The translations under genes and the position numbers were made by a program. The notes beneath the pieces were generated by a model. That model made no database searches, was not told where the DNA came from, and worked only from the letters and a program-made list of their open reading frames with translations. Positions 1,211 to 5,740 of a DNA stretch of 37,395 nucleotides are shown here, in pieces. The stretch covers positions 1 to 37,395 of IMG/VR virus record IMGVR_UViG_3300045988_031779; one strand, 5' to 3'. Every line of letters begins with the position of its first letter. The first letter of the stretch is position 1. The stretch comes from a virus. Lineage: Duplodnaviria > Heunggongvirae > Uroviricota > Caudoviricetes.

Positions 1211-1232
1211 AAAGGCCGCAAGAGCGGCCTAT
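1211..1232. terminator. Candidate bidirectional intrinsic terminator (GGCCGC-aaga-GCGGCC)
   Basis: 6-bp GC stem between convergent genes 949..1206(+) and 1229..1957(-), T/A-rich flanks on both sides; overlaps the stop of the minus-strand gene. Confidence 0.45.
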
Positions 1233-1957
1233 CGTTTCGCTTTGTGCTCGTCCCAGCACGTTTTGCACCATGCCATTAAGCCGTCCGCATTTTGATTATT
1301 AGGGTAAAAGCTGGTCCGTTTTCTGCGGACATTACAAATTGGGCACCACTTCATATGGCGTGTATTCTTTGGGCCATCGAGGCACCTTGCACACCACTTA
1401 GTCAATCCATCTGGATTTTTTGACGATTTCCGGAATTTGTCATATGGAAGGTTTATTCTGCATCGCAAACACTGCTTGCGGCCACTTGAAACTCTGTTAG
1501 CTGATTCTTCTTTTGGCGGCGATACAGAAGGTATTCTTGCTGGCTCTGATACTGCCTGAGGTGCTTTTTTAGATGACTGAGACGATATGTCATCACCAGG
1601 GAATCTTCCATGATATGCCGGACGCGTTGACACTCCAGGTGGAAGCTCAGCTGTAAACGGCTTTGGCTGAATCAGTTGCCTCTCTTTTGCTAACTCCTGC
1701 TGTTTATAATATGTCTGGATTACCGCACTATCATAAGCAGGAGGTACGGAAATATCAGGCGCGTTACCTCCAGTTTTTTGAAACTGAGTAGATGTGTGTT
1801 CTATCACCTGTGTACGACTAATCGTTACCTCCCCATCTTCGGTCTTTATCGTTTTGTTCTGATTAACGACCGTACGATCAGAGATCTTAGTCTTGTTCTG
1901 GTTGATAACGTAAATAATCACCGCAACCACACCAACAACTATCCAGAAAACTTCCAT
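1229..1957 (-). CDS. Single-pass membrane protein with C-terminal tandem Cys-rich (zinc-ribbon-like) repeats, 242 aa
   Basis: ATG at 1957 with GAGGA upstream; hydrophobic N-terminal helix FWIVVGVVAVIIYVI; C-terminus has two similar units NPDGLTKWCARC and NADGLMAWCKTC plus further Cys pairs. No family recognised. Confidence 0.55.
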   Translation of the reverse strand: MEVFWIVVGVVAVIIYVINQNKTKISDRTVVNQNKTIKTEDGEVTISRTQVIEHTSTQFQKTGGNAPDISVPPAYDSAVIQTYYKQQELAKERQLIQPKPFTAELPPGVSTRPAYHGRFPGDDISSQSSKKAPQAVSEPARIPSVSPPKEESANRVSSGRKQCLRCRINLPYDKFRKSSKNPDGLTKWCARCLDGPKNTRHMKWCPICNVRRKRTSFYPNNQNADGLMAWCKTCWDEHKAKR

Positions 1958-2198: not shown

Positions 2199-2354
2199 AT
2201 GCGTTAAGCACAGCTATATCCGAATTATGGTGGGCTGGGCAGGGGTCCGAAAGGACGCCGGTACCACTTAGGCCGGTACGCCAACCTTGTCCAGTTCACC
2301 ACCAGTAATTGGCGTTGCGGTGGTGATTAAAATCACTAAGTGGAGATAACCACC

Positions 2355-3065
2355 ATGGCTAATGCTCAAACTTCCATCTTCAAATTTGAATCTGTTAACC
2401 CTATCCGTTCCATCATTATCGATGGCCAACCATGGTTTGTAGCCCAAGACGTTTGTAGTGCGCTGCGTATCCAAAACGTCACCCAAGCACTTGAAAAACT
2501 GGATGATGATGAAAGGTCTATGTTCAACATAGGGCATGAACATCGTGCAATTTTTGACAGCCGAGTAAAAGAGATCAACATCATCTCCGAGTCAGGCCTC
2601 TACACACTGATCCTCCGCTGCCGCGACGCAGTGACACCAGGCACTATCCCCTACCGCTTTCGTAAATGGGTTACAGGTGAGGTTCTTCCTCAGATCCGCC
2701 GCACCGGAAGCTACATTAAAAACTCGCTCCCGCAGGAAGAACGCATAAAGATGGTTGCCGACCAGGTAGCCAACGCCACAGCATCAGCAGTGATGCAGGC
2801 AATGAAGATAGAGAACAAAACCTACAGCGCCCCACTGAAGCCCGGCTACCGCAGCCTGATTCATTCGCCGTCTGGTGTTCTCGGCCTGACGGAGCACTCA
2901 CTGCTGATGAATCTGCTGAACCAGTTACAGGACGACGGGCACGACGTATCGGGCGCGGCGGCGGAGCTGACCACCATGTTCTGCTACATCGTCGGTGTGA
3001 GCAAATGCCTGCGTGATATCCAGACCCACGCGGAGTACATCAACGACAAAGCAGGGTTCTTCTGA
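2355..3065 (+). CDS. Bro-N domain antirepressor with Ant/KilA-C-type C-terminal domain, 236 aa
   Basis: ATG at 2355 with GGAG 9 nt upstream (track ORF begins at GTG 2340 in the same frame). N-terminus IFKFESVNPIRSIIIDGQPWFVAQDVCSALRIQN matches the Bro-N signature; C-terminal domain is paralogous to 949..1206. Confidence 0.7.
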   Translation: MANAQTSIFKFESVNPIRSIIIDGQPWFVAQDVCSALRIQNVTQALEKLDDDERSMFNIGHEHRAIFDSRVKEINIISESGLYTLILRCRDAVTPGTIPYRFRKWVTGEVLPQIRRTGSYIKNSLPQEERIKMVADQVANATASAVMQAMKIENKTYSAPLKPGYRSLIHSPSGVLGLTEHSLLMNLLNQLQDDGHDVSGAAAELTTMFCYIVGVSKCLRDIQTHAEYINDKAGFF

Positions 3066-3136
3066 CGGGCGGCGGCACAGGGATGTGTCTTTAAATCATT
3101 CTGTACAGATTGCAGACTGGGAGTGAATAGCGTACT

Positions 3137-3153
3137 ATTACCCTAAAGGTAAA
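3137..3153. promoter_or_regulatory. Operator-like palindrome site 4: ATTACC-ctaaa-GGTAAA
   Basis: 26-42 nt upstream of the ATG at 3179. Confidence 0.45.
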
Positions 3154-3178
3154 CCATGTGTTTACATGAGGAGGAGAT

Positions 3179-3388
3179 ATGGGATTTTGGTTCGCTCGTA
3201 CAAAAACGAGGGATAATGCACCCAGCCCTCAGGCAAAAAATGCAGAAGTTCCGGCGTCAGCGCAGGTTAACAAGCGTGGTGGAGTATATATCTCATCACA
3301 GCAAATTTCTGAGCTTCCTGAGGTTAAAGAGATGCGTCGTCTCGCTGCTGCAATTGTTAAACAGGATCTTGCCACTGTAAGGAAATAG
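3179..3388 (+). CDS. Hypothetical small protein, 69 aa
   Basis: ATG at 3179 with strong GAGGAGGA upstream; ordinary GC content; stop overlaps the GTG start of the next gene (TAGTG). Confidence 0.45.
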   Translation: MGFWFARTKTRDNAPSPQAKNAEVPASAQVNKRGGVYISSQQISELPEVKEMRRLAAAIVKQDLATVRK

Positions 3389-4251
3389 TGTTGTTAGCTC
3401 TTCTAATTATCCCCATTCTGGTTAGTGGTTATATTATGATAACCGCTAACCAGTATCATTATTTCCGTTTATACCGACATGAAGGCCAGCTTCTTTATAT
3501 GAAAGTAGCTGCATTAGGTACATATTGCCTTGTTGCTTCAGTAATAATTGCCGCATTTATAAAATGTAAATATCCTGATTTTCACCTAGTTCACGACATG
3601 GTGGAAACTTTTAATGTAACGTCAAAACCAGAAACAGATAGAATTTACATGTGGCTACTTCTTCTGTCAGTCACATCAATTTGCTTCTCTTTGTGTTATG
3701 TATCTTTTGTTTGGCTAAAAGATCTTCTTTTAGGTTGTTTTTATAAACGTGATATTTATGACAAAATATCAGAGGCAATGAAAGCTAGAGTATTGCGAAA
3801 AACGTACTCCCAGGGTTCTTTAGATTTGCTATTGCTTGATGCAATCGAATCAGATCCTAAGAAACCAATGTTAATTACTTTATCATCAAATAAAGTATAC
3901 GTTGGAATAATAAATGGTTCTGGTGAGCCAACGGAAAATCAAGGGCCACACCAACACATATCTTTTGTTCCTTTAATGTCAGGGTACAGAAACAAAGAAA
4001 ATTTATCTGTTACATTTACAAACGCTTACCCAGGTGAAATCCAAATTAAGCGCAGTGCTGCGATAAAAGGGATAAGCAAAAAGAAAGTTCAAGGTCTAGA
4101 AATTATGGTATCTATAGACGAAATAAGTCATATATCATGGTTTGACTTTGAAGTATATAAGGCAACCAATAACAAAGTAGAAACAAAGGGTCATGTTGTT
4201 AATGTGACCAAAAATGGTCGCAACATATACTACAGAAGTGGCAGGAAATAA
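3388..4251 (+). CDS. Polytopic membrane protein (about 3 predicted TM helices plus ~170-aa soluble C-terminal domain), 287 aa, AT-rich cargo
   Basis: GTG start overlapping the upstream stop, GGAA 5 nt upstream. Hydrophobic segments LLALLIIPILVSGYIMI, VAALGTYCLVASVIIAAFI, MWLLLLSVTSICFSLCYVSFVW. Sequence visibly AT-rich compared with flanking phage genes (by eye, not computed). No family recognised. Confidence 0.6.
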   Translation: MLLALLIIPILVSGYIMITANQYHYFRLYRHEGQLLYMKVAALGTYCLVASVIIAAFIKCKYPDFHLVHDMVETFNVTSKPETDRIYMWLLLLSVTSICFSLCYVSFVWLKDLLLGCFYKRDIYDKISEAMKARVLRKTYSQGSLDLLLLDAIESDPKKPMLITLSSNKVYVGIINGSGEPTENQGPHQHISFVPLMSGYRNKENLSVTFTNAYPGEIQIKRSAAIKGISKKKVQGLEIMVSIDEISHISWFDFEVYKATNNKVETKGHVVNVTKNGRNIYYRSGRK

Positions 4252-4267
4252 TTTTTACGTAGTTTAG

Positions 4268-4780
4268 GTGGCTTATATGGATAATACTATCTTAGGCGCA
4301 TTGATAGGTGCAGTTATTGCTATAGTTTCTACTTACATAAGTGCAAGGCAAGGATACAAAAACAGCATAAAATTAGAGCGCGAAAAAATATTAAGAGATA
4401 AACGTGAGCAATTATTCACAAATTGCATACTTACTGAAAAAGTCATAGCTTCAAACAAAATGGCTATTCTCAATTTTGTTAACAATGCCAGTTACCACTC
4501 TGATAGTAAATTTGACACATCAAAAGTCAATCCGTTGCAAACGATGGAAATGCTAATAAACATATACCTTCCTGAGTATAAAAAAGACTTACAAGAACTC
4601 AATAATATGTATAACAAGTTTCACAATTACTACTCTCAATATACATGTGCACATACCTTCAAAAATATGCCTGATAATGAGAAGTTGAAGTTTATTGAGG
4701 AAGCTGATTTTTATGCAAAAAAGATATATGGCAAACTTAATGATATTAAGGACAAGATATCATTTAACTCAATAGTATAA
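4268..4780 (+). CDS. Membrane-anchored protein (one N-terminal TM helix, Lys/Asn-rich soluble domain), 170 aa, AT-rich cargo
   Basis: ATG at 4268, 16 nt after the previous stop, with AGGTGG upstream. TM helix ILGALIGAVIAIVSTYI. No family recognised. Confidence 0.6.
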   Translation: MAYMDNTILGALIGAVIAIVSTYISARQGYKNSIKLEREKILRDKREQLFTNCILTEKVIASNKMAILNFVNNASYHSDSKFDTSKVNPLQTMEMLINIYLPEYKKDLQELNNMYNKFHNYYSQYTCAHTFKNMPDNEKLKFIEEADFYAKKIYGKLNDIKDKISFNSIV

Positions 4781-4855
4781 CAGCGATACTGCCGCTGACG
4801 GCTCCCGCTGCGGTGGGCGTTCTGCGGATTCCCGCCCGGGCGGCGGTGGAATTCG

Positions 4856-5740
4856 TTAAAAACAAGGCCGCGAAAGCGGCCTGTTTGATAACTGTGCAGT
4901 TTTCGCTGATCGATTTTCAGCTCTAAATTCAAGAACCGTTTCAATATTTCTTTCCTTCAGCATATCAATAACATTTTTATTCATTTGACTATCACTGGTT
5001 AATAACTGGTAAACGTCGCTTCTCTCTTTATCAGAGTTTTCTTTAACAGCTGCTTTGCATGCCAAATGCTTATTGAAATTTTCTACATCGCTAGTACAGG
5101 AATTTACGGCTGCTGATGAAATATCAGACGCTGAAGAAACACCATCATCCAAACGTTTTATAGCATTTTCTATACATGAGTTAAGGGAATAAACGACAAC
5201 TGAGCGATACCCTTCAGACGCACACCATTCTAAATTTCTTGAAGGATCGAGTGGTTTTACTTCGCTGGATTGAATTAACTTGTCAAAAACTGACTTATAT
5301 TCAATCTGTTTTTTATCTATAGCCCATACTTCAGTAGCTGATTTATAATTCCCCGTATGCCTATTAACATCAAATCCATGTTTTATAAGCAAATCTGCCC
5401 ATGAAAGATTTATTGATTCATTGTTATGAGGCCATTTTCCTGTCAGAACCGCCCCCATAGACCCCATATATCCGCCATATGATGGTATAGCACCATGGCT
5501 CAGTAACTTCTCAGCAACCACAGGGCAATTAATTACATAAGAGGCGTAAAGCCCATTCCATAAAGCCCCTCTATAGTAATCGCCACGATTAGGTTCTTTT
5601 AAGTCGATAGCCTTTGATAATTGTTCACACGTTTTGCATGCATCAAAGTTATCCTTATTGCATTGCAATGAACTGGCAGCTGTAGGATTTACAGAGACTA
5701 TTGAAAGCACTATGCCAAAAAACAAATTTATTTTTTTCAT
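4856..5740 (-). CDS. Secreted protein with Sec-type signal peptide, AT-rich; weak ankyrin-repeat-like motifs, 294 aa
   Basis: ATG at 5740, 1 nt after the stop of the 1129-aa virion protein gene. N-terminus MKKINLFFGIVLSIVSVNPTAASS is signal-peptide-like; ADLLIKHGFDVN and AEKLLSHGA resemble ankyrin repeat ends (weak). Confidence 0.55.
   Translation of the reverse strand: MKKINLFFGIVLSIVSVNPTAASSLQCNKDNFDACKTCEQLSKAIDLKEPNRGDYYRGALWNGLYASYVINCPVVAEKLLSHGAIPSYGGYMGSMGAVLTGKWPHNNESINLSWADLLIKHGFDVNRHTGNYKSATEVWAIDKKQIEYKSVFDKLIQSSEVKPLDPSRNLEWCASEGYRSVVVYSLNSCIENAIKRLDDGVSSASDISSAAVNSCTSDVENFNKHLACKAAVKENSDKERSDVYQLLTSDSQMNKNVIDMLKERNIETVLEFRAENRSAKTAQLSNRPLSRPCF
4866..4883. terminator. Bidirectional intrinsic terminator candidate (AGGCCGC-gaaa-GCGGCCT)
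   Basis: 7-bp GC stem with GAAA loop, flanked by AAAAACA upstream and GTTTGAT downstream, at the convergence of the plus-strand module and the minus-strand late operon; overlaps the last codons of 4856..5740. Confidence 0.5.

Follow-up and report, generated by a model that had tools for sequence, protein, structure and literature searches.

Several kinds of small phage-borne membrane system have been described. Abortive-infection systems with membrane effectors, among them lambda RexAB, the transmembrane (TM) effectors of CBASS, Pycsar and Thoeris, retron-TM and AC1 (Rst_2TM_1TM_TIR), are small prophage or island operons whose TM protein is believed to bring about the death or arrest of infected cells. 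P22 SieA, T4 Imm and HK97 gp15 stop the translocation of phage genomes without killing the cell, and the known superinfection-exclusion (Sie) proteins are phage-specific and of narrow range. RNA binding is the classical role of Sm-fold proteins, which usually assemble into rings, and Escherichia coli MscS combines an N-out topology with three TM helices, an Sm-like beta domain and a further C-terminal domain in about 287 amino acids (aa). The membrane-effector systems are the nearest functional analogues of the two-gene module, A-B, that is described here from a viral DNA stretch of 37,395 nucleotides (nt), called the window below (Caudoviricetes; positions 1 to 37,395 of IMG/VR record IMGVR_UViG_3300045988_031779).

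In the window A and B are followed by a third gene, C, on the same strand:

3179..3388, + strand: gene A, open reading frame (ORF) of 69 aa, soluble product
3388..4251, + strand: gene B, 287 aa, predicted inner-membrane protein with three TM helices and an Sm/LSm/Hfq-like beta-barrel
4277..4780, + strand: gene C, 167 aa, predicted to have one N-terminal TM helix and a Lys/Asn-rich, all-helical cytoplasmic part

On comparative grounds the conserved unit is A+B, a self-contained and horizontally mobile two-gene operon, since A-family genes go with B wherever B occurs. An earlier note on this DNA, made from the letters alone, had joined B and C into a membrane-protein module and had taken A for a native phage gene; the ORFs lie where that note put them, and the grouping is redrawn here. 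The reading preferred in this work, given somewhat less than an even chance, is that A-B is a membrane-acting anti-phage module of the abortive-infection type, with B as the effector and A as its regulator. It draws on the pairing of A with B, the predicted architecture, the mobility of the pair, its P2-hotspot, bSEFIR and Dnd contexts, and the cargo-exchange slot occupied by the window copy.

Pairing and architecture of A and B

Among the first 36 loci retrieved, a small same-strand ORF abuts every B except one that is cut at the start of B. The end of this ORF falls within about 25 nt of the B start in 35 first-round loci, with an overlap of 38 nt in locus L017. Abutting small ORFs are present in 71 of 74 IMG/VR viral contigs, the other three being cut at the contig start, at B. 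In all, each of 110 loci with an uncut B start has such a same-strand gene. Genes of 57-90 aa stand directly 5' of B in Providencia, Citrobacter, Pectobacterium, a metagenomic lambdoid phage and an unplaced chromosomal island, and Salmonella IncC plasmids carry a 68-aa gene with a B homologue. No A-B gene fusion was found among 223 retrieved proteins.

The A family is recognised by the core motif ..RV(V)GRG.V.I..eE(V/I)....E.....A..IV. A profile seeded with five enterobacterial A sequences and iterated over the 4,531 ORFs of the 36 first-fetched loci matches 31 of these ORFs, every one abutting B on its upstream side, with no false positives. It reaches Alcanivorax, Lampropedia, Lautropia, Sneathiella, Saccharospirillum, Nitrosomonas, Turneriella and phage phiES15, and in the viral contigs it matches the abutting ORF in 50 of 74 and no other ORF there. 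Partners in the most divergent B clades (P2-like phages, Xanthomonas, Shewanella, Cyclobacterium) have a strand-Gly-strand-helix pattern akin to that of A. Gene A is a full-length member of phrog_5739 ('unknown function'; expect value (E) 7e-52), and 18 A-family members gave no match to Pfam or PDB profiles. An apparent likeness of RVGxRG..IP to AbrB hairpins, and with it a reading of A as an AbrB/MazE-type antitoxin, was set aside for want of Pfam or PDB support.

Gene B is a full-length member of phrog_3630 ('unknown function'; E 1e-107). By profile search its family comprises 2,782 clusters at 50% identity (E<=1e-3), 1,622 of them at E<=1e-10, nearly all of 230-320 aa; longer variants differ by a larger periplasmic loop only. 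Members occur in Enterobacterales, Xanthomonas, Stenotrophomonas, Shewanella, beta- and alphaproteobacteria, a leptospire and Bacteroidota. Neither B (NCBIfam) nor 46 diverse members of the family (Pfam, PADLOC, PDB sequence families) gave a match, apart from two single-member PADLOC hits at chance level at E<=0.01.

In the AlphaFold model of B, built from 22 sequences (predicted local distance difference test (pLDDT) 70.6), helices at residues 2-20, 33-61 and 81-119 are followed by two short cytoplasmic helices and a beta domain. The soluble part after the three helices is predicted to be about 165 aa long, with a barrel at about residues 144-220 and extra strands to about residue 282. As modelled, it has an N-terminal alpha-helix and then a strongly bent five-stranded antiparallel beta-sheet, as expected of the Sm fold, and two independent methods return Sm/LSm/Hfq/WYL folds as its matches; a search of a viral structure library gave nothing informative. 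The topology would be N-out and C-in, with the Sm-like domain in the cytoplasm, because the loops after TM1 and TM3 are K/R-rich (positive-inside rule). Conservation among the 46 members peaks in TM1 (LLxPILVSGY), in the first cytoplasmic loop (LHRxxGQxLYLK) and in the barrel (KVYVG, P..SGYR, Y214), which suggests that the membrane part is functional and not a mere anchor.

Purifying selection acts on both A and B. The ratio of non-synonymous to synonymous divergence (dN/dS) between E. coli alleles is 0 in A, 0.06-0.15 in B and 0.41-0.46 in C, and these values, together with the existence of homologues, mark all three as real genes and not chance ORFs.

Expression signals, host phage and the gene C cassette

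The signals recognised around and within the genes are:

3149..3165, + strand: palindrome GTAAAC-CATGT-GTTTAC (GTAAAC-N5-GTTTAC), between a weak -10-like TACTAT and the ribosome-binding site (RBS)
3169..3174, + strand: RBS of gene A, AGGAGG, read in the sequence
3418..3453, + strand: perfect 15-bp hairpin, then a T-rich tract, within B codons 11-22; terminator-like match
4865..4882, both strands: bidirectional intrinsic terminator GGCCGC-GAAA-GCGGCC, a GC-rich hairpin with T-runs on both strands

The GTG start of B has one base in common with the TAG stop of A (aaaTAGTGttg); a start at TTG 3391 would be equally possible, because M-L-A-L-L begins most homologues. Although the ORF of C opens at GTG 4268, its true start is almost certainly ATG 4277, since AGGTGG lies 5 nt upstream and MDNT begins all homologues and the PHROG profile. 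A promoter scan of 3066-3178, the 113-nt gap 5' of A, found no consensus sigma-70 promoter. The palindrome could be an operator or a hairpin of the 5' untranslated region; it is kept in part (TACGATTACCCCAGAGGTAAACACAATGTTTGC) at a Symbiopectobacterium locus (L022), and a strong RBS precedes the A homologue at most loci. Directly upstream of A stands a BRO-N/antirepressor (Ant-like) gene (2340-3065), and no terminator was detected in between, so that partial read-through of A-B-C from this gene is possible.

The hairpin inside B (dG -22.5, z -5.2) has similar counterparts in Providencia, Citrobacter, Pectobacterium, Yersinia and Symbiopectobacterium. Two of its pairs show compensatory changes and its covariation score exceeds that of 496 of 500 shuffles, in a set of eight distinct sequences with the structure derived from one. 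It is absent from family members beyond Enterobacterales and from the distant clades. As a candidate attenuator it may set the A:B ratio and keep the output of B below that of A, and the A-before-B layout with an internal hairpin fits designs in which a regulator is made in excess. Between B and C no terminator was found. The terminator at 4865-4882, annotated at the homologous site in the phiV10 record, separates the A-B-C operon from the convergent gene 4856..5740.

The G+C content (GC) is 0.467 in A, 0.345 in B and 0.306 in C, against 0.482 in the whole window and 0.45-0.57 in the flanks, and the AT-rich island extends into the convergent gene (GC 0.372). The compositional island claimed in the earlier note is thus real, and so are the TAGTG overlap, the strong RBS and the palindrome 5' of A, and the bidirectional terminator. 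The models agree with its estimate for B of about three TM helices plus some 170 aa of soluble domain and, at low confidence, with one TM helix and a Lys/Asn-rich domain in C. Its description of A as a gene of ordinary GC holds for the overall value and fails at third codon positions, where GC is low (0.36). Because of this low value, the higher overall GC of A is most likely an effect of amino-acid composition.

The window is assigned to an E. coli prophage of the epsilon15/phiV10 (Uetakevirus) group. Its backbone is 97% identical to Escherichia phages EC.W1-9, PAS61, TL-2011b and phiv142-3, and a near-identical prophage in E. coli E275a adjoins yfgI. A-B-C has the BRO-N/antirepressor gene on one side and the end of the internal-virion-protein operon on the other. 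The same slot holds a 108-aa gene and a DUF2335 membrane protein in EC.W1-9, and A-B without C in other E. coli prophages; judged by such comparisons, it is a cargo-exchange site of this phage group.

Exchange is also seen inside the module. E. coli strains 4/4 and Ecol_542 have a match to A only, without B. In strain 4/4 the orphan A (L037 4001-4210) is followed by a DUF2335 membrane protein replacing B, the breakpoint being the A/B junction (window 3392), and it carries R33C, at the Arg of the conserved RG motif, which could be decay once the partner was lost. The A protein is identical across E. coli variants, synonymous changes notwithstanding. Synonymous divergence (dS) from strain CE0007a is 0.09 in A and 0.50 in B; the same two values mark a sharp step at the A/B boundary between the window and the C-less variant L002, which points to recombination swapping B alleles beside an invariant A. 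Because of this difference in dS and the replacement of B at the junction, A appears within E. coli phages as the conserved left arm for exchanges of B alleles or of other cargo. To this extent the earlier view of A as native is right; it does not extend to other taxa, where A-type genes are the constant partner of B. The earlier note is borne out further in that the AT-rich cargo is real, the locus is a swap slot and relatives occupy recognised defence hotspots. The failure to recognise a known defence family in the proteins is matched by negative PADLOC, Pfam and NCBIfam searches, and the remote-homology comparison led for B to the modelled Sm/LSm/Hfq/WYL fold.

Gene C came with an insertion that left a relic behind it:

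4253..4779, + strand: C cassette of 527 bp with C and its RBS, delimited by blastn breakpoints against the C-less variant L002
4782..4859, + strand: relic of the 3' part of a gene for a 53-aa signal-peptide protein (annotation 'transmembrane anchored protein'), cut by the C cassette

Positions 3000-4252 and 4780-4884 of the window align with L002, and 4253-4779 stands in place of 176 nt, among them the 5' portion of the 53-aa signal-peptide gene (MKKAFAALFVLLSLVASTQAFA...GGGIR). The relic translates to SDTAADGSRCGGRSADSRPGGGGIR*, in agreement with the C-terminal end of the intact protein (53 aa) in phage EC.W1-9, and is annotated in RefSeq as a partial pseudogene. The DNA at 4781-4885 (relic and terminator) matches about 500 complete E. 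coli genomes. Only 12 close relatives of C were found, all named ones from E. coli, and none was found in the phage collection or outside E. coli. Of 5,426 complete E. coli genomes, 28 have A-B and 8 have C, which in each case stands 3' of A-B. It is a full-length member of phrog_36918 ('unknown function'; E 4e-99), with no match in Pfam, PADLOC, NCBIfam or PDB, and its model is poor (pLDDT 50.7), showing a hydrophobic helix at the N-terminus and only helices in the rest. C is a secondary cassette, a later add-on known only from E. coli and faster evolving than A-B. Co-transcribed with the pair on this reading, single-pass by its model and fast-evolving, it may modulate or extend the specificity of A-B, or have nothing to do with its neighbours.

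The neighbouring slot is filled in related prophages by a YafO-family toxin gene and a hypothetical gene beside it (L001 9823-10834). The convergent gene at 4856-5740 (- strand; 294 aa, GC 0.37) has a clear signal peptide (MKKINLFFGIVLSIVSVNPTAASS) and falls in phrog_6118 ('unknown function'). It lies at the end of the internal-virion-protein operon and resembles a second, independent moron; its ORF is 11 codons longer than the 283-aa EC.W1-9 homologue and runs through the terminator stem. In the same variable region, the 242-aa product of 1229-1957 (- strand) has an N-terminal TM helix and two C-terminal Cys-rich repeats. These match endonuclease VII, HNH and Lar-like zinc-ribbon PHROGs (E 1e-11 to 1e-8) and, weakly, Pfam Stc1; the gene looks like an odd membrane-anchored zinc-ribbon moron.

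Genomic contexts and candidate function

A-B loci are found in three phyla and in at least four temperate-phage lineages (Uetakevirus-like, lambdoid, P2-like and phiES15-like prophages), and also on IncC plasmids, integrative islands and bare chromosome. At most loci the GC of the pair is below that of the flanks. Salmonella phages SEN4/5 and Klebsiella phage ST15-OXA48phi14.1 carry the pair between the replication gene A (gpA) and the portal gene Q. This gpA-Q (old/tin) hotspot of P2 is a demonstrated reservoir of anti-phage systems (Rousset et al., 2022, PMC9122126). The searchable supplements of that paper, including the tables of tested systems, yielded neither the motifs nor the accessions of the pair. 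It is the homologous pairs that have the hotspot location; the window copy belongs to a different phage type.

Directly downstream of A-B in the Klebsiella phage (L019 4856-6495) are a 69-aa gene and a 477-aa bSEFIR/TIR protein; bSEFIR is the next gene but one after the pair (E 7e-103), two small-gene-plus-effector units adjoining each other. The pair lies between integrase and attachment site in phiES15 and lambdoid prophages. The Xanthomonas pair stands after an integrase and is followed at about 2.3 kb by DndC and at about 3.7 kb by PbeC/DndD; in Shewanella the pair is on an element with DndB and a resolvase. In about 17 of the 74 viral contigs, counted by eye from coordinates, the pair is <= 1.5 kb from a contig end. 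A scan of 119 neighbouring proteins from 13 genomes gave matches to HEC-02, PDC-S08, SoFic and type IV restriction endonuclease models; it lends weak support, because the matches cannot be assigned to single loci.

On the Salmonella IncC plasmid pSTY1-2010K-1587 (L116 2872-4515) a RecD-like AAA ATPase is encoded directly 5' of A-B, beside a mer operon. It matches the PADLOC typeIV_RecD and PDC-S68 models (E 2e-50).

If A-B is an abortive-infection module, A would be translated first and probably in excess, owing to translational coupling and the hairpin at the start of B, and would hold B silent or relay the trigger. B would oligomerise through its Sm-like domains into a ring, as Sm-fold proteins usually do, and the ring would gather 18-21 TM helices into a pore or another membrane-disrupting assembly, with TM1 (LLxPILVSGY) and the cytoplasmic loop (LHRxxGQxLYLK) as parts of the working membrane unit. 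A cue inside the infected cell, either loss of A or the binding of nucleic acid or a nucleotide, would free B. The ligand site may be the conserved Lys/Arg/Tyr cluster of the barrel (K169, Y171, Y200, R201, Y214). Freed B would then collapse the membrane potential before the phage cycle is complete. A bolder proposal, which must be called doubtful, is that A-B founds a new immune family of very wide distribution (2,782 or more clusters at 50% identity) in which a membrane-tethered Sm-fold ring is sensor and gate at once, and phage nucleic acid or nucleotide binding, or the loss of A, opens a pore with three TM helices per subunit.

Several points weigh against a defence function and its mechanism. 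The model of B is of moderate confidence only, and the Sm1/Sm2 and Hfq motifs (Pfam LSM, Hfq) were not detected in B or in the 46 diverse members. The ring, the pore, the bound ligand and the contact of A with B are inferences. Homology of the distant-clade partners to A is unsupported (hhalign P 0.046) even though the expected hairpin motif can be aligned, only position and size being conserved. The association with defence genes is anecdotal: neighbours in 13 species-representative genome loci are mostly housekeeping genes, and two pairs are alone among core genes. The occurrence of A without B in two genomes does the model no harm and is no proof of it either.

Other functions can be set against the same observations. 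B is prophage-borne and predicted to be an inner-membrane protein, its direction of expression is opposed to that of the late genes, and it is found at att-proximal or moron positions, as is typical of sie genes; a Citrobacter prophage with A-B also has a SieB gene, so such phages do bear exclusion genes. These features suit superinfection exclusion at entry, in which B, with A, would block translocation of the incoming genome and the cell would survive. It is nonetheless unlikely, as the B family spans three phyla and resides on plasmids, islands and bare chromosome, a conserved cytoplasmic Sm-like domain with an obligatory soluble partner indicates intracellular sensing, and A, B and C have no similarity to the SieA, SieB, Imm and Cor families. 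Quite unlikely, too, is a toxin-antitoxin (TA)-like addiction module that stabilises mobile elements, with B as a membrane toxin, A as a labile antidote and no phage-specific role: A matches no antitoxin family or DNA-binding fold, and standalone chromosomal pairs amid core genes need no stabilising. The co-inherited small upstream gene that abuts or overlaps a larger downstream one is TA-like, a layout not specific to TA systems. The invariance of A and the presence of the pair on prophages, plasmids and islands would agree with addiction, as would the persistence of orphan A, the lack of any intact uncut locus having B without an abutting small ORF, and genome CE0021a, in which neither A nor full-length B is annotated. 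TA and abortive-infection roles are not mutually exclusive, and addiction therefore differs mainly in its trigger.

B could also serve outside conflict, as a membrane-tethered Sm/Hfq-like binder of RNA or a ligand, or as a small MscS-like channel, altering host physiology (ion homeostasis, RNA localisation, stress tolerance) with A as a cofactor. Sm-fold proteins bind RNA and MscS joins three TM helices to an Sm-like beta domain; the Sm-like fold matches of the B model, the many housekeeping neighbours and the pairs outside any mobile element are in line with such an accessory role, which is held to be improbable all the same. The grouping of the earlier note, which makes a two-gene membrane system of B+C and takes A for a resident phage gene without relation to them, can call on the constant position of C downstream of A-B, in the same orientation and with no terminator between, and on A being the conserved arm in E. 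coli phages, with B swapped at the A/B junction in two genomes. It is very improbable, because 20 of the 28 A-B-bearing complete E. coli genomes are without C (present in the other 8), neither the phage collection nor any species other than E. coli yielded a relative of C, C is a discrete indel whose insertion cut short another gene, and an A-family gene stands beside B in every taxon and element type examined.

Should A-B protect against phages, it would represent a large unannotated defence family with a new domain logic (TM anchor, Sm-like barrel, partner of about 70 aa). The annotation rule 'small gene abutting a B-family gene' would then label thousands of 'hypothetical' pairs on prophages, plasmids and islands, and the Sm/Hfq fold would reach beyond RNA metabolism into membrane-based conflict systems. 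If the ring is sensor and gate, this would be the first Sm/Hfq-like domain acting as a membrane effector in antiviral defence. The unit for study is now corrected to A+B, and B+C without A would probably be a toxic or inactive construct. Even if it is not defensive, a conserved membrane-tethered Sm-like family of such size merits characterisation.

Comparison with known systems

No literature on the A-B family was found, including work on phiV10 and epsilon15 and the DefensePredictor paper with its supplements, the coverage of E. coli prophage-defence work being incomplete. A, B and C have no match at E<=1 in PADLOC-DB v2.0.0, the libraries covered reaching to 2023. The database entries phrog_5739, phrog_3630 and phrog_36918 neither link the three genes as a module nor note an Sm-like fold.

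By its modelled fold the soluble domain of B belongs to the Sm/LSm/Hfq superfamily, but it fails the sequence definitions, and it differs by its fusion to three TM helices and by about 60 extra residues of beta structure. The WYL ligand-sensing domains (BrxR, CapW, DriD) are related to the Sm fold; B has no WYL sequence signature and no match to the Pfam WYL profile. The overall plan and the size of MscS resemble those predicted for B, for which no match was obtained with Pfam MS_channel (pore helix TM3 and beta domain) or with an MscS structure.

SieA and SieB of P22, Imm of T4 and gp15 of HK97 are likewise small inner-membrane proteins at prophage moron positions. They are single genes of narrow range without homology to the module, whereas A-B is a two-gene unit present in three phyla and also on non-phage elements. 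No Pfam or PHROG match to the SieA/SieB/Imm/Cor or holin families was obtained for A, B or C, the TM helix of C giving a chance-level match to a holin PHROG (E 0.1).

The membrane-effector abortive-infection systems have no sequence kinship with A-B. They differ also in that A is a soluble protein of about 70 aa without an enzymatic or known sensor domain and that the soluble domain of B is Sm-like. AC1 of a P2-like phage is located in the same P2 hotspot as homologues of A-B (PMC9122126). Its 2TM+1TM+TIR arrangement was considered as a relative, the Klebsiella pair lying near a TIR gene, and was rejected: the protein sequences given in the table are unrelated, and the Klebsiella TIR gene is a separate bSEFIR. 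In kind, A-B would fall among the mobile membrane-protein conflict modules already known; its TM and Sm-like effector is unusual among them, and C is an optional passenger. Set beside these systems, A-B is an undescribed, widespread two-gene module and a good candidate for a role in defence.

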